Of a stretch of 32,000 nt of DNA, positions 474 to 22,273 are shown piece by piece. This DNA comes from Candidatus Hermodarchaeota archaeon (GTDB lineage Archaea; Asgardarchaeota; Heimdallarchaeia; Hodarchaeales; Hodarchaeaceae): contig JBHLKY010000011.1 in the NCBI GenBank assembly GCA_048886185.1, positions 1-32,000 on the forward strand. Reading direction: 5' to 3'. The notes beneath the pieces were generated by a model, which worked only from the letters and a program-made list of their open reading frames with translations, was not told the origin of the DNA and searched no databases. Positions within the stretch are counted from its first letter, which is position 1, and each line of letters opens with the position of its first letter. Position numbers and translations under genes: made by a program.

Positions 474-1949
474 TTATGTTTTACCAGGAATGCCTGTTGT
501 TTTTTCTGGGATAATCTGTTGTTTATATTTATAGAACATTTCCGCTAGTTCTTGTACCTGTTGTAGTATTTCTTCTGAATTTAATTTCGTAAACTGATAA
601 TCATTTATTAACAATTGACCATTTGATATTACATACTGAATTTCGTTCCCATTTGCTGCCCAAATCAAGTTCTCTACTACATTATCTAAACGTGTCGGTA
701 TTAAATTTGGTTTTGAAAGATCGACGACAATAACATCTGCTAATTTTCCTGGTTCTAACGATCCTGTATTAAATCCTAAAATTTGTGCCGGAAGAATTGT
801 TATCCGCTCGATGACATCTTGAGCAGTCATTAATGTTGCATTTTGGTGGTAGGCTTTCTGGTATTGAGCAGCCACTCGAGCTGCATTAAGAATGTTCTGA
901 TTATCAGCACTTCCTGACCCATCTGTAGAAATTGCAAATATAATCCCTTTCTCCTTAAATTTTTGAAGAGGTGGCATCCCTGAACCAAGAATCGTGTTTG
1001 CAAGGGGATTATGAACAACCTTGGTTTGGGTTTTTGCTAAGATTGTGAGATCATTTTCAGTATTATGAACTTGGTGCCCAACAAATGTTTTTTCATCGAG
1101 AAAGTCAATGGAATGGCCATATTCAACTGGAGTCATTCCATACTCTTCCGTAAACCACTTCGTTGTCGCAGGTTCTTCGCTAGAGTGAATATGAATTAAA
1201 GTATCGTGAGAACGAGCCCAAGTTTTTAAAGCTTTAAGAAGGTCTGGACCATTAGAAAAGAACTGATCTGGACCAGGGATAATTTTAATATTCGCAGTAT
1301 TTTTATATTTCTCATACAATTCGTCCAAACGATTAACCGCTATATCAGTATTATCCAGTATTTTGGGATCATAATGCCGATCTTGAGAACCAATAGCGAT
1401 CATGATTTTAGTTCCAGCGATTTGGTTGGCTTTAACGAGTTCGTCTACATGATACTTGTTGAAATTGCAGTGATGAACTAATGCTGTTGTTATTCCATAC
1501 TGTAAGTCATCTACTCGTGCTTTCAGGTAAGTGATGAAGTATGGTGACTTTCCAAAATGTTTTGTTAATCGATCTTCTTCAGTATGTAAAAATCCTGTAT
1601 AAAGATTCACCACTGAATCTAACCAAGTAGTTAGGGGAACATCTTTGGCAATTCCAATGATTGGAGATTCATGATCATGTCCATGTGCTTTGACAAACCC
1701 TGGAAGTGTCACTCCATTTATCTGGGGTATTTTATCGGGTTCACTCACCCCTGTTGTTGGTGATCCAATGATTTCTAATTGTGTACCATAAGCATCCAAA
1801 ATTTGCTGGATTTTCTGACTATCAAATTGGCCAACCTCTTTGATGTATTTTCCTTCAATGAAGACATATCCATCATTAATACGAGTTTCCCGCCCTGATG
1901 TGTCCGAAAGAGGCAAGAGGAATCTTGTTCTGATCAACTTGTACTTCAT
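474..1949 (-). CDS. Metal-dependent amidohydrolase (Atz/Trz/MtaD-like deaminase family), substrate unknown
   Basis: PGFVKAHGHDHE (HxH), HIHSSE, HNPLAN, STDG and GSLEPGKLADVIVVD motifs. Confidence 0.85.
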   Translation of the reverse strand: MKYKLIRTRFLLPLSDTSGRETRINDGYVFIEGKYIKEVGQFDSQKIQQILDAYGTQLEIIGSPTTGVSEPDKIPQINGVTLPGFVKAHGHDHESPIIGIAKDVPLTTWLDSVVNLYTGFLHTEEDRLTKHFGKSPYFITYLKARVDDLQYGITTALVHHCNFNKYHVDELVKANQIAGTKIMIAIGSQDRHYDPKILDNTDIAVNRLDELYEKYKNTANIKIIPGPDQFFSNGPDLLKALKTWARSHDTLIHIHSSEEPATTKWFTEEYGMTPVEYGHSIDFLDEKTFVGHQVHNTENDLTILAKTQTKVVHNPLANTILGSGMPPLQKFKEKGIIFAISTDGSGSADNQNILNAARVAAQYQKAYHQNATLMTAQDVIERITILPAQILGFNTGSLEPGKLADVIVVDLSKPNLIPTRLDNVVENLIWAANGNEIQYVISNGQLLINDYQFTKLNSEEILQQVQELAEMFYKYKQQIIPEKTTGIPGKT

Positions 1950-2115: not shown

Positions 2116-3483
2116 TTGGATCTCATTATTAAGAATGGAACCCTTGTAGACACCAATGGTCACTATAAAGCAAACTTAGCTATCGCTGAAGGGAAAATCA
2201 AAGCTATCTTTCTGGGAAACAAAAATTTTCATGCAGAAAAAGTTATCGACGCTAGTAAAAAGATGGTTTTTCCAGGGATAGTTGATACTCATGTCCATTT
2301 TCAACTCCAAGATTTGGGTCAGACCATTTCAACTGATTCTTTTGCTTCTGGAACTCAAGCTGCTGCTTGTGGAGGTGTGACCACGATCATTGACTTTGCG
2401 GATCAGATTAGAGGGGAATCTCCTCTCAAAAGCTTTTATGAGCGGAAGAAGAATACTGATCCACAAGTAGCCATTGATTATAGCCTACACATCTCAAAAA
2501 CAGACATTGATTTTCTAGACGAGATACCTACCCTCATATCTGAAGGGGTAACCAGTTTCAAATTTTTTACGACTTATAGTTGGCGAAATCTGGATCTTAA
2601 TGATGTAGAACTGTTAAAATTCTTTAGTGAGGTTAGGAAAAATCGGGGAATGGTTATCGGCCACTGTGAAAATGATAGTATAGTTGTCAACTACCGAAAT
2701 ACGCTTATTCAGGAGGGAAAAACTGATCCGATTTTTCATGCTCTTTCACGACCTCATATAGCAGAGGAAGAAGCCATCCAGAGAGCAATTCTCTATGCGA
2801 AAAAAACAGGTGTTAAGCTTCATTTGGCTCACATCTCAACGAAAGAAGGCTGTGATTTGTTATCACATGCGAAAAAGCAAGGTTTAAACATAACAGGAGA
2901 GACTTGCCCGCATTATTTGCTGCTGAACGAGAAAGCCTACAAGGGATCAGAGGGTTACTTGAATCTGATGTCACCACCTCTTCGTCATGCTAAGGATCAA
3001 CAAGCATTGTTTCACCAAGTACATTCAACAGTGGATCAAATAGTAACAGATCACTGTGTATTTTCCCGTGAGAGTAAGGGGAATGGGGAATTACCTTTTC
3101 ATCAAGTCTTAAATGGAATTCCTGGGATTGAAACCTCTTTACCTCTTATGCATAATTTTCTAATTAATAAACACAAATTAACCTATCCTCAGCTAGTGTC
3201 TCTAATGTCCACCCGACCGGCACAAATATTTGGCCTTTATCCTCAAAAAGGAAGTCTAATGGTTGGAACAGATGCTGATATTGTAGTTTTTGACCCACAA
3301 ATAGAAAAAACTATTGAACCAGAACTTCTTCATCATTCTATTGACTGGAATCCTTTTACGGGGATGAGAGTTGTCGGATGGCCAGTCTTGAGTGTCTTGC
3401 GTGGACATATCCTTCAAGAGAATGGGAGCTTTATTGGTCCCCAAAACGAGGGAAAATTTCTGAAATGTTCAACACATCATTAA
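2116..3483 (+). CDS. hydA: Dihydropyrimidinase / D-hydantoinase (HydA/HyuA family)
   Basis: DTHVHF, SFKFF (carbamylated Lys), HCEN, HLAHIS, ETCPHYL, MSPPLR, TDHC and GIPGIE motifs. TTG start preceded by AGGTGA. Confidence 0.9.
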   Translation: MDLIIKNGTLVDTNGHYKANLAIAEGKIKAIFLGNKNFHAEKVIDASKKMVFPGIVDTHVHFQLQDLGQTISTDSFASGTQAAACGGVTTIIDFADQIRGESPLKSFYERKKNTDPQVAIDYSLHISKTDIDFLDEIPTLISEGVTSFKFFTTYSWRNLDLNDVELLKFFSEVRKNRGMVIGHCENDSIVVNYRNTLIQEGKTDPIFHALSRPHIAEEEAIQRAILYAKKTGVKLHLAHISTKEGCDLLSHAKKQGLNITGETCPHYLLLNEKAYKGSEGYLNLMSPPLRHAKDQQALFHQVHSTVDQIVTDHCVFSRESKGNGELPFHQVLNGIPGIETSLPLMHNFLINKHKLTYPQLVSLMSTRPAQIFGLYPQKGSLMVGTDADIVVFDPQIEKTIEPELLHHSIDWNPFTGMRVVGWPVLSVLRGHILQENGSFIGPQNEGKFLKCSTHH

Positions 3484-5970: not shown

Positions 5971-6381
5971 TTATTTGGGATTTTTCTGATATTTCCTTAA
6001 CAATTCTTTACATTCTTCATTGTCTTGATATTCTAGGATGACTCCATGAGATTTCAAGAAATCTTCGGCGCCCATTATCGTTTCATTATCTGCAATGACT
6101 ACTCTAGGAATTTGGAAATAAACAATGGTTCCAGAGCACATCTGACAAGGTGAGAGAGTTGTATACAAGACTGATCTTTGATAATCTTCAGGAAGCAGTA
6201 TCCCTGCGTTCTCTATGGCATCCATTTCCGCGTGCAAGATCACACTTGCTTTTTGTTGGCGCTGATTTCTCCCTCGACCGATTATTTTTCCATCAAGAAC
6301 TAATACTGATCCAATTGGGATCCCATTTTCTTCAAAACCATGTTTAGCTTCTTGAACTGCAACTTGCATAAACTCATCCAT
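5971..6381 (-). CDS. Zinc-dependent nucleobase deaminase, fungal Fcy1-type cytosine deaminase-like
   Basis: GIPIGSVLV, HAEMDAIENAG, LYTTLSPCQMC (HxE...PCxxC) motifs. Confidence 0.85.
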   Translation of the reverse strand: MDEFMQVAVQEAKHGFEENGIPIGSVLVLDGKIIGRGRNQRQQKASVILHAEMDAIENAGILLPEDYQRSVLYTTLSPCQMCSGTIVYFQIPRVVIADNETIMGAEDFLKSHGVILEYQDNEECKELLRKYQKNPK

Positions 6382-6410: not shown

Positions 6411-7463
6411 TTAGTAAATCCCACCCATGGTTAACGCCATTATAGCTTTTTGCACATGAAGTCGATTCTCAGCCACATCGTAGATACAGGATCGCGGGCC
6501 TGAGGCGACTTCATCAGTCACTTCGTGTCCCCGATCAATGGGCATCGGATGAGTGAAGATTGCATTATCAGTTAACGCCATTTTTTGAGAATCACAGATC
6601 CAAGTGGGATAGTTGAGCGCTTTATCGATTTCCTGTTGTTTTAGAAAGTCCCCATCTAGATAAGCTTCAGGACTCATCCAATGGCGAGAATAGACGACAT
6701 GGGCTCCCTCATACCCTTTGGTGAGATGGTTTGTAACTTCAAAATGAGTATTATATTCATTGCAATTCTCTTCAGTCCGCTTTAAAACCTGAGAATCCAA
6801 ATCATATCCTTCAGGAGAAGCAACGGTGACATCCATACCATAACGTGAGCCAATCAACATGGCTTCTTGAACAGAGCACCATGAACGAGCCAACGCGCCA
6901 TGACCCCAAGTAACCAATAATTTTTTCCCTTTTAAGACTCGCCAATCAGGGGGAAAGCCAATCCCTTTGTTAAACCATTCCGACCAACCCATGACATCTG
7001 CCAAACCCTGACAAGGGTGGTATTTATCATGAGCCATTGAAATGATGGGTATAGTGGACCATTTCGCGTATTCTCGAAGGAGGGCCTCACCCTCGCCATA
7101 TTCACCTACTTTATCTTCAAGTATTCGAATACCAAGACCGTGAGCATACCGAGACATTACTTGTGCAGCATCTTCAACGGTCTCTCCTGCAGTAGTTGCG
7201 GTCTTTAAGCGCATAGCTTTAGGTTCGAGAAATTGGGCATGGCCACCCAATTCTGTAGCAGCTACTTCAAAACTTTGTCTGGTACGAACACTTGGATTAT
7301 AAAAAAACATAAAGAATGTTTTATGTTGTAACAAATTTATATAGCGACGGGAAAACCGTTCCCGCTTCATTCTACCTGCTAGATCTAAAACTAAGTCTAA
7401 TTCGTACTTCTCCCAATCTTGTGTGCAAATCAGATCTCGTCCATATAAATCAGAAAATTCCAT
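6411..7463 (-). CDS. Carbamoyltransferase (ATC/OTC superfamily, YgeW/AOTC-like), paralogue 1, substrate unknown
   Basis: FYNPSVRT, HPCQ, HPMP, AENRLH motifs; no OTC DxxxSMG loop. Confidence 0.85.
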   Translation of the reverse strand: MEFSDLYGRDLICTQDWEKYELDLVLDLAGRMKRERFSRRYINLLQHKTFFMFFYNPSVRTRQSFEVAATELGGHAQFLEPKAMRLKTATTAGETVEDAAQVMSRYAHGLGIRILEDKVGEYGEGEALLREYAKWSTIPIISMAHDKYHPCQGLADVMGWSEWFNKGIGFPPDWRVLKGKKLLVTWGHGALARSWCSVQEAMLIGSRYGMDVTVASPEGYDLDSQVLKRTEENCNEYNTHFEVTNHLTKGYEGAHVVYSRHWMSPEAYLDGDFLKQQEIDKALNYPTWICDSQKMALTDNAIFTHPMPIDRGHEVTDEVASGPRSCIYDVAENRLHVQKAIMALTMGGIY

Positions 7464-7476
7464 ATTTATTCACCTT

Positions 7477-8463
7477 TTATGGTATAATTGTTGTTCCTGC
7501 TTCTCCATCGAGGGCAGCTGCGGCAAGCTCAGGTGTGGTAATCACAACTTTCTTACCTCCAGCTTTTAAAAATCTAATAGCAGCTTTTAATTTAGGCCCC
7601 ATTGAGCCTTTTAACTTTTCTCCGAAAGCTCCTTCTTCTAAGTACTTTTCAACTTCTGATATAGTCATTCTATCAATTCCCTTTTGATCAGGAGTTTTGT
7701 AATGTAGATAAACTTTATCAGTATCAGTTAAAATCGCAAAAGCTTCTGCATTAGTATTACTAGCCAGCCTTTCCCCAGCTAAGTCCTTATCTATGACTGC
7801 TTCGATTCCTGTTATTGAACCATCAGGATTCTTAATAACAGGAATCCCTCCACCTCCACTTGCAACCAGTATAAATCCTGTTTCCAATAAAACATTCACT
7901 TGATCTTTTTCGTAAATTTCTATCGGATCTGGGGAAGGAACTACACGACGGTACCCCCGCCCTGCATCTTCAATTATTGTAAACTCTGGATGATCTACTT
8001 TAATTTTATCAGCTTCCTCTTTGGTATAAAAGGGTCCAACAGGTTTGGTGGGATTTTGGAATGCAGGATCATCCCTAGAGACAACAACCTGAGTCACGAT
8101 CGTCGCAACTTTAATTTTTTTCTCAGGATCTAACCGACTTGGAGGTCCTTCTGTTACCAAGAGATTTCCGAGAATATTTTGAATAAGATACCCTATCTGT
8201 CCTTGTGTCATTGCTCCTGCAACATCCATTGTAAGCAGGGGACGATCATAGGGAGGATGGGAGCCAGCTTCCATTTGTAGCATAAGATTTCCGACTTGAG
8301 GCCCATTACCATGAGTTATTACAATTCGCCATTTCGGAATGACCTTCATGATTTGTTTTGCGGTTTCTGTGACATTTTCGATTTGTTCCTCTAGTGTTCC
8401 TCGTTGTTTCCCTTTGATCATGGCATTTCCCCCAAGTGCAATGACAACTAATGGTTTAAGCAT
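7477..8463 (-). CDS. arcC: Carbamate kinase
   Basis: ALGGNA, HGNGPQVG, PTKPVGPFY, GRGYRRVVPSP, GGGGIPV, VIDKD, GSMGPK motifs. Confidence 0.95.
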   Translation of the reverse strand: MLKPLVVIALGGNAMIKGKQRGTLEEQIENVTETAKQIMKVIPKWRIVITHGNGPQVGNLMLQMEAGSHPPYDRPLLTMDVAGAMTQGQIGYLIQNILGNLLVTEGPPSRLDPEKKIKVATIVTQVVVSRDDPAFQNPTKPVGPFYTKEEADKIKVDHPEFTIIEDAGRGYRRVVPSPDPIEIYEKDQVNVLLETGFILVASGGGGIPVIKNPDGSITGIEAVIDKDLAGERLASNTNAEAFAILTDTDKVYLHYKTPDQKGIDRMTISEVEKYLEEGAFGEKLKGSMGPKLKAAIRFLKAGGKKVVITTPELAAAALDGEAGTTIIP

Positions 8464-11224: not shown

Positions 11225-12289
11225 TTAATGCATAATACATGCCATAATACCCTTTTGTGCATGCAATCTGTTCTCGGCTTGATCGAAGATGATAGATTGA
11301 GGTCCATCAGCAACTTCATCATCAACTTCCATTCCACGGTCTTGGGGGAGACAGTGCATGTAGTACCCCCGTCCCTTCTTCGTCATATCCATTAATTCCA
11401 CTGTTGTTTTCCAATGTTTATATTTATTCATGATATCAGGCATCATTTCAGGTTTAGCAGGTCGAACACCCTCTATACCATGGGCTTCCAGAACTCCCCA
11501 GCTCTTGGGATACACGAAATCAGCATCCTGAAATGCGGCTTTCATATCACGTTCAAGAGTAAAAGTCGAACCATATTGATCACAATGATCTTCTACTTTC
11601 TTGATAATATCTGGATGGAGGTCGAATTCAGGAGGACACGCTAATGTCAGATCCATCCCAAACATAGAGGGAGCAAGGACTCCTGTTTGAGGAACTGCCA
11701 TGGGTTTTTGACCTGCAGAATATGCCCAGCTCATCACAAATTTCTTTCCTTGTAATTTGTTAAAATCATGACTACATTTCTCGTATATGGTTAAAATATC
11801 CGCCATTCCTTGGCAGGGATGATACACATCAGACTCCATATTGATGATTGGCTTCTTACTCCAATATGCAAAGTTTTCCTGGATTTTTTGGCCTTTCCCA
11901 TACATCCAGTTACACTTACTGCCGTAGATACGTATAGCAATTGCATCTCCCATTCTAGATAAAACTCGTGAAACATCAGATACCCTTTCTGTTTCATAAG
12001 CGATCTCATCTCCTGGTAATGCTGGAGTATAGATAGCTCCAGGTTGGAGAAAATGTGCATGCCCACCTAATTGTGTCATTCCTGCTTCAAATGAGTTTCG
12101 GGTTCGAAGTGAATCATTATAAAAGATCATAAAGAGAGTTCGGCCAGAGAGGATGTGTCTATGATCCTCATGAATAACAAAACGTTTTTTCAAATCAGCA
12201 CCAACAAGTAGCATGGTTTCAATTTCTTCTCGGGTAAAATCGATCATAGTGAGGAAATCTCGGCCTTTCAAGTCTTCAGTAATTACCAT
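11225..12289 (-). CDS. Carbamoyltransferase, YgeW-like, paralogue 2
   Basis: FYNDSLRT, HPCQ, KKFVMSWAYS...KPMAVPQ, FGMDLTLACP, DADFVYPKSW, HCLP. The substrate domain resembles E. coli YgeW as remembered. Start placed at ATG 12289 (track start 12349). Confidence 0.85.
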   Translation of the reverse strand: MVITEDLKGRDFLTMIDFTREEIETMLLVGADLKKRFVIHEDHRHILSGRTLFMIFYNDSLRTRNSFEAGMTQLGGHAHFLQPGAIYTPALPGDEIAYETERVSDVSRVLSRMGDAIAIRIYGSKCNWMYGKGQKIQENFAYWSKKPIINMESDVYHPCQGMADILTIYEKCSHDFNKLQGKKFVMSWAYSAGQKPMAVPQTGVLAPSMFGMDLTLACPPEFDLHPDIIKKVEDHCDQYGSTFTLERDMKAAFQDADFVYPKSWGVLEAHGIEGVRPAKPEMMPDIMNKYKHWKTTVELMDMTKKGRGYYMHCLPQDRGMEVDDEVADGPQSIIFDQAENRLHAQKGIMACIMH

Positions 12290-12556
12290 GATAATCATTC
12301 CTTTCATTAAAATGCGATAAAACTCTGAAGGAGGATTTTTTCTATTCAAAAAATGTCTAGGGGGTAGAGTTAACTCCCAGGAATATAGTTCAAATTTCTT
12401 TGTGAAAACTCGTGTCTTGTCTTAATAACCCAGAAAACGGATAATCACATAAAAGACTCTGTTATGAAAGTATCTGAATAATCTATAAATTCCGACTAAT
12501 TGACATTAAAATCCTTATAAAAATAGTTTCGTTTGAATAAGTCCAATGATGGTCTT

Positions 12557-14252: not shown

Positions 14253-15674
14253 TCATCCTCCTTTAAGTTTCTGCGAAACCCTCAGATATGTCTGAAAAGA
14301 TTTCACAGTCAGATTTGTCTTTAAGCTAGGCTTAGGATTATCTTCAAGGTTCAAGGTATATCCTCCCTTGTCTAGAAGGTCATTAAACGCATCTTGGGCC
14401 ATCTTGAGGATTTTAATTTCATCCAAAGTTTCGACCTGCCTATTTTTCATGATTATTTGGCCATCAACTATGACAGTATCCACATCTGACCCAAAAGCAG
14501 AGTATACTAAATGAGAGGGACAATTATGAAATGGTGTGAGGTGAGGTTTCTTAAAGTCTAATATAATGATGTCAGCTTTTTTCCCTACTTCAAGAGAGCC
14601 AATTTCTCTCTCTAACCCAAGACTTTTAGCTCCTAGAATTGTGGCCATCCGAATAATCTTCTGAGCAGGAAGTACGGTCGAGTTCTTACTTTTCATCTTA
14701 TGAAGAAATGCAGCCGTTCGCATTTCTTCTATCATATCGAGATTATTGTTACTTCCACATCCATCGGTTCCAATCCCAACAATAACGCTATTTTTCATCA
14801 GTTCAGGTATCGGAGCAACCTCATTCCCATATTTCATCATTGGAGAAGGACAGTGAGACACTGTGGTGTTTGTTTTCTTCATGATTTGCATATCCTCCTT
14901 TGTGACAAATACACAATGTGCTGCTAATACATCCTTCTCCAAGACTCCCAAATTATGTAAATGTTCAATGGATGTGCTTCCATGCTTCTCCTTCGCCATC
15001 CTCGGTTCGTTCGGCCCTTCAGCGACATGGATATGTAAACCGACATTAATTTCATTAGCTGCTTCTCGTGTTTGTTGAAGTAAAGCTGGTGAACATGTGT
15101 ATATTGAATGAGGACCTAACTTACAGGATATTCGTCCATCGACAGAATCATTCCATTCTTGAGCAAAAGCCACGCTCTCTCTGAGCTCTCGTTCTCCCTT
15201 TTCCTGGTCATTTAATTCTAATATCCCCTGGGCAAGATTCGCACGCATCCCAGCTTCTTTGACCGCACCCGCTACGCGATCCATATGCCAATACTGATCA
15301 GCAAAGCAGGTTGTTCCTGTTTTTATCATCTCCAAGCAGCCTAGAAGGGCCCCAACATAACAAGTATCAGCAGTGATATTTTTTTCAATCGACCAGATTA
15401 TTGGTAACCAGTTTATTCCAGGAACGTCGTCAGCAACACCTCTGAATAAAGTCATTGATAAGTGTGTATGAGTATTGACAAGTCCTGGCATCAAAACCAT
15501 TCCTTTTGCGTCAATCTCTCTATCAGCTGAATATTTCCGCATTTGGTTTATTGATCCTAAATCAATGATTTTATTCCCTTCAATAACTAAGGTTCCCTCT
15601 GAAATTACCTCATTCTTCTGGTTAACTGTGATGATTACTGCGTTTTTTATTAGTAGATCAGCCAAAAAAACCAC
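14253..15674 (-). CDS. MtaD/DadD-like 5'-methylthioadenosine/S-adenosylhomocysteine deaminase family amidohydrolase
   Basis: PGLVNTHTHLSMTLFRG, EMIKTGTTCFAD, GPHSIYTCS, HIHVAE, AHCV, GTDG.GSNNNLDM motifs. True start may be TTG 15665. Confidence 0.85.
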   Translation of the reverse strand: MVFLADLLIKNAVIITVNQKNEVISEGTLVIEGNKIIDLGSINQMRKYSADREIDAKGMVLMPGLVNTHTHLSMTLFRGVADDVPGINWLPIIWSIEKNITADTCYVGALLGCLEMIKTGTTCFADQYWHMDRVAGAVKEAGMRANLAQGILELNDQEKGERELRESVAFAQEWNDSVDGRISCKLGPHSIYTCSPALLQQTREAANEINVGLHIHVAEGPNEPRMAKEKHGSTSIEHLHNLGVLEKDVLAAHCVFVTKEDMQIMKKTNTTVSHCPSPMMKYGNEVAPIPELMKNSVIVGIGTDGCGSNNNLDMIEEMRTAAFLHKMKSKNSTVLPAQKIIRMATILGAKSLGLEREIGSLEVGKKADIIILDFKKPHLTPFHNCPSHLVYSAFGSDVDTVIVDGQIIMKNRQVETLDEIKILKMAQDAFNDLLDKGGYTLNLEDNPKPSLKTNLTVKSFQTYLRVSQKLKGG

Positions 15675-16366: not shown

Positions 16367-19300
16367 ATGAATATTTCAGTAATTAAGGATAGAGATAGCT
16401 TCGAGGGTATAATTCGTCCAATTAATACAAGTACTGACTCAAAAAAACTTGCTGATTTTTTTAATGCGATTGATGATCTATGGCCAGGTACTTGGACTCA
16501 AGGAATCAAGTATGATGAAAAACGTGCACGAGAGTTCATTGAAAAAATGAAAGCTCTTGAGTGGTTCGTTGCTTTTAACCCTCAAGAACGGTTAGTTGGG
16601 CTGTGTTCAGTTCATAAACGTATGGAAGAGCCCAATGTTTCATACATTGGTATTTTGGGTGCTCATCCTGAAGTACTAGGAAAAAAGTATGGTAAGCATC
16701 TACTCCTCACTGCAGTTGATTTTAGCGTGAAAAATGGTGATGTACGACAAGATCTAAACACTTGGCCATCAAATATGAAAGCTGTTCCCCTTTACAAGAA
16801 GATTGGCCTTCAATGGGTTCCCGACACCTCAGTATACATGCAGAACTACATTCCTGTGATCTTACAAAACTCATTCTGTAAACCATTTTTTGATAAACAT
16901 CCCCATTGGTACCTTGATCAGAAGCGGGAAATTATACAAGCTCCTGATGAACAAACCCTAGGAAAAATGAAAGTTTTTTATTATCGGTTTGAAAATGAGC
17001 AAGACTTTCTTGAAGTAATTATTGATCGCTATAGCCGATCTATCACGGGTGTTACTAGAAGTATTAATGGAGAATTAATTGGGATAACCTTACAACAGAA
17101 AGATCATGATGTCTTTGCTGGAATTGCCCAATCTATCTCTTTACTCATAAGGAATGAGTCCAATAAAGAGCTATCTGTTATTGTATCTATGGAGGGGTCT
17201 AAGGAAGTCAGTGTAAAAACTATTCAAGACATTCTGACAGTTTCCAATGGAAGCAAAATCCTTGAAAATACTTACGTCGTTGACGATATAACTTCTGACA
17301 CTGATATTCAAAGAAAAACTCCCAGTATCAAAAGCCGGATTATTATTAATGGAGAAGTCCTTACTCTAGAAGCAGGTATGAGAGTTCGTCAGGTTATTGA
17401 TATCGAGATATCTGATCATGTTTGGTGGAGACCTTCTGGAAAACAAGATATGTCACTTCACATCCAAAATAGGTCTGAAAAATCCATTGAAGGAGACTTG
17501 ACATTATGGTCCACTAATGAAATTAATATTCTTTCCCCTGTTATTCCAATTAAATTAGCTCCTGAAGAGAATATCGGTGTCATTGCTCAAATAGAAATTC
17601 CCTCGAATGATGATGACATTTTTACAAGTCTATATTGCCAAGCTAAGATGGAAACTACTAAGAGTAGAGTATTTGAACTCCCAATTTTCCTTTCTAATAA
17701 CCAAGGATTAGCAGCTGGTATTCAAGAGGACAAGAAGTGTGTTATCATCCAAAATCAATATATTCGAGGTGTTATTAAATTAGAGGGCGCGAAAGCGGAC
17801 TTTCGTACTCATGATGATACTTTAATGGGAATAGGCGTTCGTACACTTGATTATGGGCCTCCATTTGGTTTTAGTGAATTTAATCAAGTTGAATTTACAC
17901 CTAAAATAATAGAAAAAAGAAATTCTATTCAGATTAAACTTTCAAAGAGAGGACAATCGAAAAGAGAGTTATTATTTCATCGGGTTTTTGAATTAAGAGC
18001 AGGAGATCCTCATTTTGCTACATGGACGGAAGTTCAAAATTTAGGAACTATGGATGACCAAATAACTATGATCATAGAACCGCATTTCACCCATGGTATA
18101 AATATGCCTCTTGGGGAAACATATTTCGTTTTTGATAATCAGCTCATGTGTGGACCTGCTTTTTTCTGGCCTGCTGGAAAAGGAGACTTACCTGAAGGAA
18201 CTGAAAGATATGAACCTTGGATTTGTATACAAGTAGGAGATGTTGGATACTACCACATCTATGAAACACACAATACTAAAGCGGATCCTAGTCGTAGTAA
18301 ATTGTCCTCACTCGAGAAAAAGATCCATATCCCTGCTCTTTCCTCATCTAGTGGACCAAAGAGTTGGATTGGATGTGGCAACATAGAATGGAAGAGAGTT
18401 CGTGAACTAGCATATTATTTAAGTAAAAAACAGGTATTGTCTCCACTTCAGCAAAAAATTGAACCAAAGTCTTATCTTAAAATCGAAATCCCAAGAGAAA
18501 AATTGTTGATTGGAGAAAAATTTTCAGAAATTAAAATTACCCTGAAATCAATCCGCTTAATGCCTTTGAATGGTCGTTTAATCATGGAAGCACCTGAAGG
18601 ATGGACAATTACTCCCAGTGAATTCGAAATTACTAATTTAAACCTAAATAATCCGCAAGAGCATGAATGCAGATTACAATTACCAAATGACACCACCTTT
18701 GGGACTTACAAACTAAAATTTGTTATTGAGAGCAACGAAAAGAGAGAAACCAAGTATATTCGATTTTTAGTCTTTGATAGCACAAAAAAACCAGAAATAC
18801 TTGATCTTCCAAAGGAATCAGATAAGAATTTGGTTCTAGTTAAAAATGATAATCTTGAAGTTACCAGTTCAGGTGACTTTGCAGCTTGTTTAACTCAAAT
18901 AAGATATAATGGCCAAAATTATTTACTTTCTAATTTTCCAAATTACTGTCCATCTATTTTCTTTTCAAAAGATCCTGGTGGTATGGTTAATTCGATTTTT
19001 CAGAGTGAAAGTGATGATCTAGATGATCCATCCTATTTGAAAGAGAAATATTTGGTTAAGAAAATTGAATCCAATCAGTGGTCTGGAGTTGAATATTCGA
19101 CAACTCTTCATGAAATAAAGTCATTGAAGGGATTGGTTGTTAAAATCGCATACGAGATATTAGGAGGAGCCTCTAGTTTAATTCGTGTTCGAACAACAAT
19201 TCATAATCCATCTTCTACTACGTTTCAGTTCATATCACTTAGTTTATTAAGTCCAGGGGCTGATGGAAGTATAGAAAATATGGTTTCGAGATTCTCTATA

Positions 19301-19591
19301 GGCACTGATGTTACTTTTCAAGTTTCAAGGGATAATCCAGTACCTATTTTTGGTGCTGGGCCAAATAAGATGGCATATTTAACTGTAGCAAAGGATAACA
19401 ACTCCCTTTCCATCATTAAAACATCTAAAAGAACTAAACTTGTTCCACTTGATGCTGGAAAAATGATCCTTGGAGCTGGATTTCTCACTAACTGGAGCTT
19501 ACAGCCCAACCAAACTGATGAAATTCTCTACTTTGTTTCGTTAAACAGTAAAGAAGAATTTCTAAAGGATATTTCCCATATTTTTTCGTGA
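16367..19591 (+). CDS. Large (1074 aa) protein with N-terminal GNAT domain and multiple beta-sandwich domains
   Basis: GAHPEVLGKKYGKHLL and TWPSNMKAVPLYKKIG GNAT motifs; APEGWTITP Ig-like segment; no signal peptide; GGTGA SD. Confidence 0.8.
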   Translation: MNISVIKDRDSFEGIIRPINTSTDSKKLADFFNAIDDLWPGTWTQGIKYDEKRAREFIEKMKALEWFVAFNPQERLVGLCSVHKRMEEPNVSYIGILGAHPEVLGKKYGKHLLLTAVDFSVKNGDVRQDLNTWPSNMKAVPLYKKIGLQWVPDTSVYMQNYIPVILQNSFCKPFFDKHPHWYLDQKREIIQAPDEQTLGKMKVFYYRFENEQDFLEVIIDRYSRSITGVTRSINGELIGITLQQKDHDVFAGIAQSISLLIRNESNKELSVIVSMEGSKEVSVKTIQDILTVSNGSKILENTYVVDDITSDTDIQRKTPSIKSRIIINGEVLTLEAGMRVRQVIDIEISDHVWWRPSGKQDMSLHIQNRSEKSIEGDLTLWSTNEINILSPVIPIKLAPEENIGVIAQIEIPSNDDDIFTSLYCQAKMETTKSRVFELPIFLSNNQGLAAGIQEDKKCVIIQNQYIRGVIKLEGAKADFRTHDDTLMGIGVRTLDYGPPFGFSEFNQVEFTPKIIEKRNSIQIKLSKRGQSKRELLFHRVFELRAGDPHFATWTEVQNLGTMDDQITMIIEPHFTHGINMPLGETYFVFDNQLMCGPAFFWPAGKGDLPEGTERYEPWICIQVGDVGYYHIYETHNTKADPSRSKLSSLEKKIHIPALSSSSGPKSWIGCGNIEWKRVRELAYYLSKKQVLSPLQQKIEPKSYLKIEIPREKLLIGEKFSEIKITLKSIRLMPLNGRLIMEAPEGWTITPSEFEITNLNLNNPQEHECRLQLPNDTTFGTYKLKFVIESNEKRETKYIRFLVFDSTKKPEILDLPKESDKNLVLVKNDNLEVTSSGDFAACLTQIRYNGQNYLLSNFPNYCPSIFFSKDPGGMVNSIFQSESDDLDDPSYLKEKYLVKKIESNQWSGVEYSTTLHEIKSLKGLVVKIAYEILGGASSLIRVRTTIHNPSSTTFQFISLSLLSPGADGSIENMVSRFSIGTDVTFQVSRDNPVPIFGAGPNKMAYLTVAKDNNSLSIIKTSKRTKLVPLDAGKMILGAGFLTNWSLQPNQTDEILYFVSLNSKEEFLKDISHIFS

Positions 19592-19622: not shown

Positions 19623-20879
19623 TCACTTATTATTAAATATGAATTGAAGTTCAGAGATTCGAGGTAAAACTGGAGGCGGTAATGAGATCTCCTGCTGTAA
19701 AACTTTAGGATCTTTAAATCCAACTCCTGTAATTGGTATAATAACTCGATCAGACTTATCAATTTCACCTCTTTCCACTAAAATTTCAAGACCAGCAACT
19801 CCTGCAGTTCCTGAGGGTTCTCCAAATATCCCCTCATGTTGGGCTAACCATTTTTGAGTTCTGAGGATAGCTTCCTCCGATACAGTAACCGCGGTGCCAG
19901 AACTGTCGTAAATAGCAGTAAGTGCGGAGTCAGCATCCCAAGGATGAGGATCAGCGAGTCCCGCTGCTACAGTGTGTGGAGTGTGTTCCCAATCACGAAA
20001 CTCTAATGCTGGTGTTCTTTTTAAAACTCCATCGACAATCGGTGCACATTCTTCAGGTTGAACTGCAACATGATGTGGAATAGAAGTAATAAAATCCAGT
20101 TCCTCGAATTCTTTGAATCCTTTATAGGTTCCCGCTAATAATCCACCACTACCAGTTGCAAGAAGTACCCAGTCAGGTGGTTCCCAACTACATTGTTCAC
20201 AAAGCTCGAACGCAAGGCTTTTTGTCCCCTCAAACTGAAAAGGATTGAAAGGGCCAAATGATGGAGAGGGCATCCAGCCAAATCGCTCATAAGACTTTCG
20301 GAAGAGTGTAACTGATGAATCTTGCCCCTCTAATTCCTCCTTTACCCTAATAACTATAGCTCCCAAATATGCTAGTTGCGATAATTTCCCCTCGGATGTG
20401 TGTTCTGGTACAAAGACAACTACTTTTTTTCCTGCTCTCGCGCCATATGTTGCTAGTGCTGCAGCAGCATTCCCTGAGGAAGCAGCTGTAAAGACTTCAG
20501 CTTTCAGTTCTACTCCTTTTGATACCCCTATAGAAATTGGTCTATCTTTAAAACTTCCTGAAGGATTACCAGTTTCAATTTTGAAGAATAAATTCTTCAT
20601 TCCAAATTTTTCTTCTCCTATACGACTAGAAGGGATAAGAGGAGTTCCACCACATCCAAGATTAACTATATATTTATTATTCCTTATCGGAAAAAACTCA
20701 CGATATCGCCAATGAGTGAATGGTCTTTTTCCCAATACTTTTTTAGTAATTTTTTCTTTCAATTTGTCATATTTGAAGTTTATGCGTAAGCGGAACCCAC
20801 AACTACAACTTTGTGTCAAAAAAAGTTTTTCTTCCACCGATTTGCCACATTTTGGGCATTTTAGATATGGATCGTACAC
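19623..20879 (-). CDS. Threonine-synthase-like fold-type II PLP enzyme, probably non-canonical substrate
   Basis: N-terminal CxxC..CxC, GGTPLI, NPSGSFKDR (PLP Lys), SSGNAA, TGSGG, EPSG, ITGVGFKD motifs. Confidence 0.85.
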   Translation of the reverse strand: MYDPYLKCPKCGKSVEEKLFLTQSCSCGFRLRINFKYDKLKEKITKKVLGKRPFTHWRYREFFPIRNNKYIVNLGCGGTPLIPSSRIGEEKFGMKNLFFKIETGNPSGSFKDRPISIGVSKGVELKAEVFTAASSGNAAAALATYGARAGKKVVVFVPEHTSEGKLSQLAYLGAIVIRVKEELEGQDSSVTLFRKSYERFGWMPSPSFGPFNPFQFEGTKSLAFELCEQCSWEPPDWVLLATGSGGLLAGTYKGFKEFEELDFITSIPHHVAVQPEECAPIVDGVLKRTPALEFRDWEHTPHTVAAGLADPHPWDADSALTAIYDSSGTAVTVSEEAILRTQKWLAQHEGIFGEPSGTAGVAGLEILVERGEIDKSDRVIIPITGVGFKDPKVLQQEISLPPPVLPRISELQFIFNNK

Positions 20880-20917: not shown

Positions 20918-22273
20918 TTATATTTGTCTTGCGATTCTGGGAGTAAGATCTAATCGTTCCCAAAGAGAAACCGCAGAGTCCGTTGACTGTTGGCTAACAA
21001 TAATCGCATCAAGAGATTTATGCACGCCATTTTTTACTATAGTTTTCCCATTTACTATAACATATTTGATATCTCGCCGAGAAAATGATCCATACACAAG
21101 GTGACTGTAAACATTATCCTCATGAATGGGTGTTGGTAAAAATGAGGTATCCATAATAGTGAAATCAGCAGCTTTATTCTTTTCAATTGATCCAATATGA
21201 TCCTTCAAGCCAATAGCTTGTGCGGCATTTATTGTTATCATTTGTACCACTTGAAGTGGAGTTGGTAATTGGCTAGGATTACGATGGTTCAGCTTGTGCA
21301 TGAGATAAGCAGTCCTCATATTCTCGATCGCATCATAAATAAATCCATCATTACCAACACCAATGTTTATCCCCTTTTGCAACATTTCTGGAAGTTGAGC
21401 TACTCCAACTGCGTTTAATTCATTACTTTTTGGATTATGAGCTATATTAGTTCGGGTTTGGGCTATTAGGTCGATCTCATGCTCGTTAATGTGAACAGCG
21501 TGGGCTAATGCGGTTCGTGATCCAAGGAAGCCCTCATCATAAAGTCGTTCTACTGTTCGCTTTCCATATTTCTCAAGATTATGATGAAGATCAGCTAATC
21601 CTTCTGCTGTATGAACAGTCTTAAATGAATTAGTTTCAGTGGCAAATTCTACCGTTTTGTTAATTAATTCATCTGAAACCGTAAAGGAGGCATGTAAACA
21701 GTAGATCCCATGCACCAATGTTTTCTCTGGGTCATTCTGCGAAATGAATCTTCGATTTTCCTCTAATCCTCTTATTCCTTCTTCATAGCTTCGACGCTCT
21801 GTCACTTCAAAGCATATCGCTCCTCTAATCCCCACATCTTGTGTAGCTTTCGAAATACGATCTAGTGAACCCTCAATAGAATTTGGGCCTGAATATGTAT
21901 CTAAATAAGCAGTGATACCATTTAATGCTAATTCATTCACAGCGAACAACGCAGATGTATATGCATCCTCTAAAGTGAGAGCTTCGTCCATTGTCCACCA
22001 AATTCTTTGTAAATTCTGAGTAAAATCTGTTGGTGGATCTATATGGAGAGGTGCACCTCTTAATAATGCAGAATAGAGATGAGTATGAGCACAAATAAAG
22101 CCAGGAAACACAACGAGGTTAGAACAATCGATTACAGTATCAGCTTTGTTGGGTATATTTTTACCAACCTGAATGATCTTACCGTCCTCCACTAAAATAT
22201 TTCCTTGCGAAATAACTTCATTGTTTGCATTCATGGTCACAATTAAGCCATTCTTAAGTAATAAACTTTCCAT
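20918..22273 (-). CDS. ssnA: SsnA-like amidohydrolase
   Basis: PGFICAHTHLYSALLRG, PTDF..NL..IWW..D.AL, IEGSL, CFEVTER, EEN.RF, HASFTV, HTAEG, HNPKSN, GNDG match the SsnA pattern as remembered. Confidence 0.75.
   Translation of the reverse strand: MESLLLKNGLIVTMNANNEVISQGNILVEDGKIIQVGKNIPNKADTVIDCSNLVVFPGFICAHTHLYSALLRGAPLHIDPPTDFTQNLQRIWWTMDEALTLEDAYTSALFAVNELALNGITAYLDTYSGPNSIEGSLDRISKATQDVGIRGAICFEVTERRSYEEGIRGLEENRRFISQNDPEKTLVHGIYCLHASFTVSDELINKTVEFATETNSFKTVHTAEGLADLHHNLEKYGKRTVERLYDEGFLGSRTALAHAVHINEHEIDLIAQTRTNIAHNPKSNELNAVGVAQLPEMLQKGINIGVGNDGFIYDAIENMRTAYLMHKLNHRNPSQLPTPLQVVQMITINAAQAIGLKDHIGSIEKNKAADFTIMDTSFLPTPIHEDNVYSHLVYGSFSRRDIKYVIVNGKTIVKNGVHKSLDAIIVSQQSTDSAVSLWERLDLTPRIARQI

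Follow-up and report, generated by a model that had tools for sequence, protein, structure and literature searches.

The window analysed here is a 32,000-nucleotide (nt) stretch of contig JBHLKY010000011.1 from a Candidatus Hermodarchaeota archaeon, and among its genes is one for an enzyme dependent on pyridoxal phosphate (PLP) that resembles threonine synthase (ThrC). The name ThrCL is used below for the ThrC-like PLP enzyme encoded at 19623..20879 (minus strand, stop codon included) and for its orthologs. The open reading frame (ORF) is intact, starts with GTG and encodes 418 amino acids (aa), with a zinc ribbon at the N-terminus (Cys8, Cys11, Cys25 and Cys27) followed by the ThrC fold. The GTG at 20879 gives the N-terminus VYDPYLKCPKCG, in agreement with the MYDPxLxCPKC of the orthologs. 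The public gene call P0002 (404 aa) begins 14 codons inside this frame, leaving out 20838-20879 and with it Cys8 and Cys11. An earlier note on this DNA gave the right coordinates and no strand, and placed the gene 38 nt downstream of an ssnA-like gene. The spacer is exactly 38 nt. The upstream product (20918..22273, minus strand, 451 aa) is a TRZ/ATZ amidohydrolase that scores best against SsnA models, yet under their cut-offs (NF005540, 379 against 444; TIGR03314, 357 against 455.5).

Pfam recognises a single PALP domain in ThrCL (228 bits), and the best NCBIfam matches are threonine-synthase models. TIGR00260 is exceeded (173 against a cut-off of 167.1), PRK08197 (NF006050) is not reached (291 against 303), and the remaining ThrC models are far under cut-off. 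An AlphaFold2 model built on 25 orthologs (pLDDT 92, pTM 0.92) has ThrC structures as its top Foldseek matches in the PDB, with target-normalised TM-scores (TMt) of 0.84-0.86 and, for enzymes of the Thermus/Aquifex/Bacillus type (EC 4.2.3.1; 1uim, 2zsj and 6cgq), 29-34% identity in the alignments. The next-best matches are fold-type II dehydratases and racemases. As modelled, ThrCL has the threonine-synthase fold: it is of PLP fold-type II, and its domains are arranged as in ThrC. Its N-terminal zinc ribbon is like that of the PRK08197-type ThrC, although it falls under that model's cut-off.

Does an enzyme of this fold still make threonine? The earlier note had said that it does not, on the ground that both phosphate-binding arginines of ThrC are gone. 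The two peptides that it quoted are found in the translation, SFGPFNPFQFEGTKS as residues 207-221 and TVAAGLADPHP as residues 303-313. In phmmer alignments to four ThrC structures, from Aquifex, Thermus, Bacillus and Mycobacterium (2zsj, 1uim, 6cgq and 2d1f), both arginines are indeed replaced. Gln215 (codon 20235..20237, minus strand) stands opposite the Arg of NPxRxEGQKT, and Ala309 opposite the Arg of AIRIGNP, with Asp310 next to it and opposite Ile (codons 19950..19955, minus strand). The Arg of NPxRxEG(Q/K)K(T/S) is the one that we take, from the Thermus ThrC structures, to bind the substrate phosphate. The Arg of AIRIGNP is a weaker criterion because several ThrC-annotated clades are also without it; many such clades in the family tree keep the first arginine and not the second. 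Three more ThrC signatures are altered in the alignments, NSVN to GPFN, STGNT to SSGNA and GNAGN to GSGGL, and the loop of the GPFN segment is two to three residues longer than in ThrC. In ThrC, the NS of NSVNP and the GNAGN loop presumably make phosphate and PLP-phosphate contacts. The Schiff-base lysine that holds PLP in ThrC (SFKDR) is kept in the SGSFKDRP of ThrCL as Lys111 (codon 20547..20549, minus strand).

The new residues are fixed across the orthogroup. All of about 120 close homologs, at 43-80% identity, have SFGP[FY]N-x-[FYHW]-Q-[FY]-EG-[TN]-K-[ST] and T-x-A-x-G-L-A-D-[PL]-[HFY]-P. Lys111, Gln215, Asp310, Trp314 and Asp315 are invariant in 25 diverse members, and position 309 is A, E, S, I or L. 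The orthogroup extends over Asgard archaea, Korarchaeota, Theionarchaea, Desulfurococcales, a Sulfolobales metagenome-assembled genome (MAG) and Thermogladius. In a tree of 159 family representatives the ThrCL sequences form one clade, distinct both from the PRK08197 type and from canonical ThrC with its two arginines. Judged from the sequences, the substitutions are not chance, and decay into a pseudogene is ruled out by the intact frame, the fixed substitutions and the 43-80% identity over many lineages. Arginine loss is not peculiar to this clade, since other arginine-less ThrC-like clades are numerous in the wider superfamily; many of these bear the Asp and have no assigned function. Since the pocket for the phosphate of O-phosphohomoserine appears to have been rebuilt, ThrCL is very probably not a threonine synthase, as the earlier note had held. 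A second ThrC-family gene, such as the earlier note had suggested looking for, is present in the same genome (G000:C5; L002:1318-2505), encoding a 395-aa PRK08197-type paralog that scores 541 bits on PRK08197 and keeps both arginines.

What, then, does ThrCL do? Judged from the predicted gene products, the window is a ureide/purine-catabolic island whose genes correspond in role to SsnA, HyuA, YgeW and YqeA of the reductive uric-acid pathway. On the minus strand, as are the SsnA-like gene and ThrCL itself, lie the genes for a carbamate kinase (arcC, 7477..8463, 328 aa; TIGR00746, 373 against 358) and, directly downstream of it, carbamoyltransferase paralog 1 (6411..7463, 350 aa), which is followed by a small CDA-fold deaminase (5971..6381, 136 aa). 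The same strand carries carbamoyltransferase paralog 2, which is AOTCase/YgeW-like (11225..12349, 374 aa), a second TRZ/ATZ amidohydrolase of the MtaD/DadD-like kind (14253..15674, 473 aa) and a third amidohydrolase of the TRZ/ATZ family (474..1949, 491 aa). A D-hydantoinase/dihydropyrimidinase, HyuA-like, is encoded on the plus strand (2116..3483, 455 aa; TIGR02033, 410 against 393). YgfK-like and XdhD-like genes are present elsewhere in this genome, under cut-offs.

The SsnA-like gene and ThrCL are linked in three separate lineages. They are directly adjacent in nine genomes, all of the closest clade (at least 75% identity). In the Asgard family that we label f17, roughly 7 kb separates the two in 12 of 14 genomes, and four loci examined there (L052-L055) have two carbamoyltransferases and two amidohydrolases, the SsnA-like one and a second, in the same stretch. 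A paralog of the MtaD/DadD-like kind adjoins the SsnA-like gene in these four loci and in L075 and L076. The third lineage lies outside Asgard archaea, in a Desulfurococcales MAG (WAKQ01000002.1, L103:3787-11266). Here six co-directional genes encode two carbamoyltransferases, a carbamate kinase, the SsnA-like amidohydrolase, a PreA/UacX-like reductase and ThrCL, in that order, and those flanking genes with Pfam matches are unrelated housekeeping genes. The array holds orthologs of the carbamate kinase and of carbamoyltransferase paralogs 1 (40% identity) and 2 (48% identity) of the window. The PreA/UacX-like reductase gene adjoins the SsnA-like gene in this array and in three Asgard families (L075, L076 and L080). 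In the bacterium Ca. Ribeiella danica (L146, JADKFS010000001.1), genes for SsnA, a fused XdhD-like Mo-hydroxylase, a PreA-like reductase, a carbamoyltransferase and an M20 peptidase are clustered, and the cluster adjoins an arginine-less ThrC-like gene of a different clade and a CysK-like gene.

Co-occurrence was counted in 301 sampled Asgard genomes, with orthologs taken at E <= 1e-100 plus three ThrCL fragments of at least 50% identity. Both genes were present in 90 genomes and neither was found in 186; ThrCL was present with no SsnA-like ortholog found in 17, and the reverse held in eight. Families f1, f5, f11, f17 and f22 have both genes, as does f19 in a single genome, the only one of that family with ThrCL or an SsnA-like gene. 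YgeX, the diaminopropionate ammonia-lyase that the earlier note proposed ThrCL may replace, was over its cut-off in nine of the 301 genomes. None of these nine has the SsnA-like gene, so that YgeX is over cut-off in 0 of 98 SsnA-like-bearing genomes, and one of them (G288) has ThrCL. The genome of the window has no YgeX over the cut-off (best 72 bits against 276). Among five Thermoproteota genomes with ThrCL, three have the SsnA-like ortholog and YgeX is over cut-off in none. The pattern of ThrCL with SsnA-like recurs across several families and two phyla. However, related genomes are not independent, so the count overstates the support, and it should be read as a pattern and not as a test. 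In one Thermoproteota genome without the SsnA-like ortholog (G305, a Desulfurococcales MAG), ThrCL is split into two ORFs of 316 and 156 aa (L117:5685-7120), which could be co-loss or an assembly error.

In the reductive uric-acid (2,8-dioxopurine) pathway, established experimentally in bacteria, YgeX turns the final 2,3-diaminopropionate into pyruvate (PMC12507026; bioRxiv 10.1101/2025.04.24.650524). ThrCL travels with genes for oxygen-free purine breakdown, which suggests that it most likely does the last step of that pathway instead of YgeX. A link between ThrCL and an archaeal form of the reductive purine pathway is probable. The conversion of diaminopropionate to pyruvate and ammonia is our best single guess for its reaction, with about an even chance of being right. 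The wider proposition is somewhat more doubtful. It holds that an archaeal clade of the ThrC family, in Asgard archaea, Korarchaeota, Theionarchaea and Thermoproteota, has been turned into the enzyme that forms pyruvate at the end of an oxygen-free purine fermentation, one where both ureido groups are harvested as ATP. The suggestion of a YgeX replacement is thus supported by context, namely the lack of YgeX over cut-off in this genome and in the SsnA-like-bearing genomes, the co-occurrence and the Desulfurococcales array, with the reaction itself still inferred. The two 2025 papers on the pathway name neither threonine synthase nor archaea (PMC12507026; bioRxiv 10.1101/2025.04.24.650524), and a literature search on ssnA in archaeal purine breakdown found nothing relevant; no published account of the present reading turned up.

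The proposed route would begin with reduction of the purine ring by the PreA/UacX-like reductase. The rings would then be opened by the SsnA-like amidohydrolase with the hydantoinase, and both ureido groups would be removed by phosphorolysis by the two carbamoyltransferases, giving carbamoyl phosphate from which carbamate kinase would make ATP. ThrCL would take the C3 amino acid that is left, most likely 2,3-diaminopropionate, as an external aldimine with the PLP of Lys111. It would eliminate the beta substituent and free aminoacrylate, which would hydrolyse to pyruvate and ammonia. Gln215 or Asp310 may bind the amino or ureido group.

Several observations weigh against this proposal. The Desulfurococcales array contains no hydantoinase. 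This genome has no ortholog of the PreA/UacX-like reductase (best 27% identity), which leaves its ring-reduction step without an assigned gene. In the largest group, the Thor-like family f11, a long distance separates ThrCL from the SsnA-like gene (1.8 Mb in G239, for example) and the neighbours of ThrCL are CYTH, RsmB-like and PUA genes. In f11 ThrCL is sometimes found with the same kind of small CDA-fold deaminase that follows the carbamate kinase and carbamoyltransferase genes of the window; in some Thor-like genomes the gene next downstream of ThrCL encodes a homolog from the BLAST cluster of that deaminase. The 17 genomes with ThrCL and no SsnA-like ortholog include families f4 and f27, and they also include G288, with its YgeX. 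There is also a question of stereochemistry. To our knowledge, enzymes of the ThrC family act on L-amino acids. The bacterial intermediates are reported to be (R)-configured (bioRxiv 10.1101/2025.04.24.650524); YgeX accepts both isomers of diaminopropionate.

As a fold-type II PLP enzyme encoded with SsnA-like, carbamoyltransferase and carbamate kinase genes, ThrCL is like YgeX/DpaL, and it is present where YgeX is not found; YgeX of E. coli and Clostridium is its proposed functional equivalent. It has a zinc ribbon and another domain arrangement than YgeX/DpaL, and at the family level it is no homolog, with 37 bits against a cut-off of 276 (NF006058). Being encoded alongside SsnA, carbamoyltransferase and carbamate kinase characterises the role of YgeX and not its family. 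Besides the altered residues, ThrCL differs from ThrC in its catabolic gene company and its coexistence with an arginine-bearing paralog. That a ThrC-fold enzyme can be recruited to another reaction has a precedent in the cysteate synthase of Methanosarcinales (TIGR03844), on whose model ThrCL scores only 53.7 bits against a cut-off of 324.9; CapA-type cysteate synthase CapA2 (9k3c) is among the structural matches of ThrCL.

The C. difficile-type uricolytic cluster comprises XdhD, UacX, SsnA, HyuA, UacY, YgeY and YgeX, and C. difficile has a UacX-SsnA pair (PMC12507026). The archaeal loci are like it in that a DHO_dh-family reductase adjoins the SsnA-type amidohydrolase, in the hydantoinase of the window island and, as proposed, in the removal of ureido groups to leave a C3 amino acid. 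They differ in that the window and the Desulfurococcales array have two carbamoyltransferases and carbamate kinase in place of the YgeY and UacY hydrolases, and ThrCL in place of YgeX. In addition, the SsnA-like protein of the window is under the SsnA cut-offs and the window island contains no xanthine-dehydrogenase gene.

The main alternative to diaminopropionate, though an unlikely one, is a substrate from the same pathway, namely a ureido-amino acid whose alpha-amino group is free, for example 3-ureidoalanine (albizziin). ThrCL would then eliminate or replace the ureido group and carry out no deamination of diaminopropionate. Albizziin is a real pathway intermediate (PMC12507026), and all the linkage evidence fits this substrate equally well. 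Its side chain is about as long as that of O-phosphohomoserine, and the former gamma-phosphate pocket, now Gln and Asp according to the alignment, could hydrogen-bond a ureido group. Against it, two carbamoyltransferase paralogs and carbamate kinase are kept with ThrCL in the window, in the f17 loci and in the Desulfurococcales array, which suggests that both ureido groups leave as carbamoyl phosphate and that diaminopropionate is left. Elimination of urea would moreover cost one ATP.

It is improbable that ThrCL catalyses a biosynthetic beta- or gamma-replacement unrelated to purine breakdown, in sulfur or non-protein amino-acid metabolism, perhaps working with a CysK-like PLP enzyme of 490 aa on a hydroxy, acyl or amino substrate that carries no phosphate. 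A gene for that enzyme is directly upstream of ThrCL in L041-43, L058 and L106, f4 and f27 have genomes with ThrCL and no SsnA-like gene, and the many arginine-less, Asp-bearing clades without assigned function would suit such a role. However, operon and co-occurrence data tie ThrCL to catabolic genes, and the CysK-like gene is distributed differently. It is present in 26 of 29 genomes of f3, a family in which no ThrCL and no SsnA-like gene was found, and in 0 of 19 f17 genomes, a family that has both. Because of these differing distributions we reject the CysK-like protein as an obligate partner of ThrCL in Asgard archaea. This CysK/CBS-like protein occurs in 118 of the 301 genomes, and its identity across Asgard classes is 57-72%, mostly 62-72%; examples are G000:C4:125543-127012, L041:1624-3102 and one in L106.

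Asgard archaea probably live in part by fermenting amino acids, and fold-type II dehydratases and racemases follow ThrC among the structural matches. ThrCL might therefore be a general dehydratase of serine, threonine or another small amino acid, with its neighbourhood reflecting amino-acid fermentation. We give this only a slight probability, since it leaves the SsnA-like co-occurrence and the six-gene array unexplained and the genome already has IlvA/dehydratase-like PALP genes.

Most improbable, yet kept as a small rival, is that ThrCL is still a threonine synthase with the phosphate held by other residues. In favour of it, ThrCL narrowly exceeds the TIGR00260 cut-off, and in G011 and G029 the ThrCL orthologs exceed the PRK08197 cut-off and the sole other ThrC-family gene encodes a paralog of about 500 aa with the PLP lysine replaced. 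Against it, at least four pocket segments are unlike ThrC with their changes fixed, PRK08197-type paralogs with both arginines occur in G075 and G239 as well as here, ThrCL travels with catabolic genes, and ThrB is over cut-off in none of five genomes, this one included, so that O-phosphohomoserine may not be made there at all.

If ThrCL does perform the last step of purine breakdown in place of YgeX, every named public record seen for the orthogroup ('threonine synthase' or a generic PLP-enzyme label) is misannotated, and metabolic reconstructions would credit organisms with threonine biosynthesis that they may not have. The reductive uric-acid pathway, which was elucidated in gut bacteria as recently as 2025, would extend to archaea, with a non-orthologous replacement for its last enzyme and a higher suggested ATP yield, from two carbamoyl phosphates per purine. 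Members of several Asgard families and of some other archaeal phyla could then draw carbon, nitrogen and energy from purines; the Asgard archaea are the closest archaeal relatives of eukaryotes. For enzymology, this would be chemistry not yet described for the ThrC fold and a natural case of its scaffold losing the phosphate pocket and gaining a new substrate, with Gln215, Asp310, Trp314 and Asp315 as a short list of fixed residues of interest.

Other observations concern neighbouring and related genes. The gene at 16367-19591 (plus strand), convergent with ThrCL, encodes a 1074-aa protein in which only an N-terminal GNAT domain is recognisable; among the closest relatives, several (L010, L012 and L014) keep it beside ThrCL. 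A separate clade of ThrC-family paralogs of about 490-505 aa has I, L, N or R instead of the Schiff-base lysine (SF[ILNR]DRG), and these are probably non-catalytic or PLP-independent ThrC-like proteins. Their loci are L089-L092 and L098 (genomes G029, G011, G075, G239 and G025), and their library representatives are P0178, P0191, P0214, P0227, P0229, P0248, P0263, P0265 and P0270.

In f11 (L068-L074, L078 and L079) the SsnA-like gene mostly comes after that of a HEAT-like protein of about 495 aa, in a recurring set of DUF362, a protein of about 170 aa, one of about 290 aa, the HEAT-like protein, the SsnA-like protein and a nearby Amidohydro_2 protein; none of the proteins upstream in the set has an assigned function. 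In f17 a gene for a small SAMP1/MoaD-like protein lies between the two TRZ/ATZ amidohydrolase genes (L052:15759-16109; L053-55), and in L075 and L076 such a gene is among or beside aldehyde:ferredoxin oxidoreductase genes. In L075, L103 and L104, oxidoreductase genes of this kind lie close to ThrC-like or SsnA-like genes, and the genome of the window has at least 13 paralogs of them (G000 contigs C4, C5, C9, C10, C12-C15, C18 and C27).

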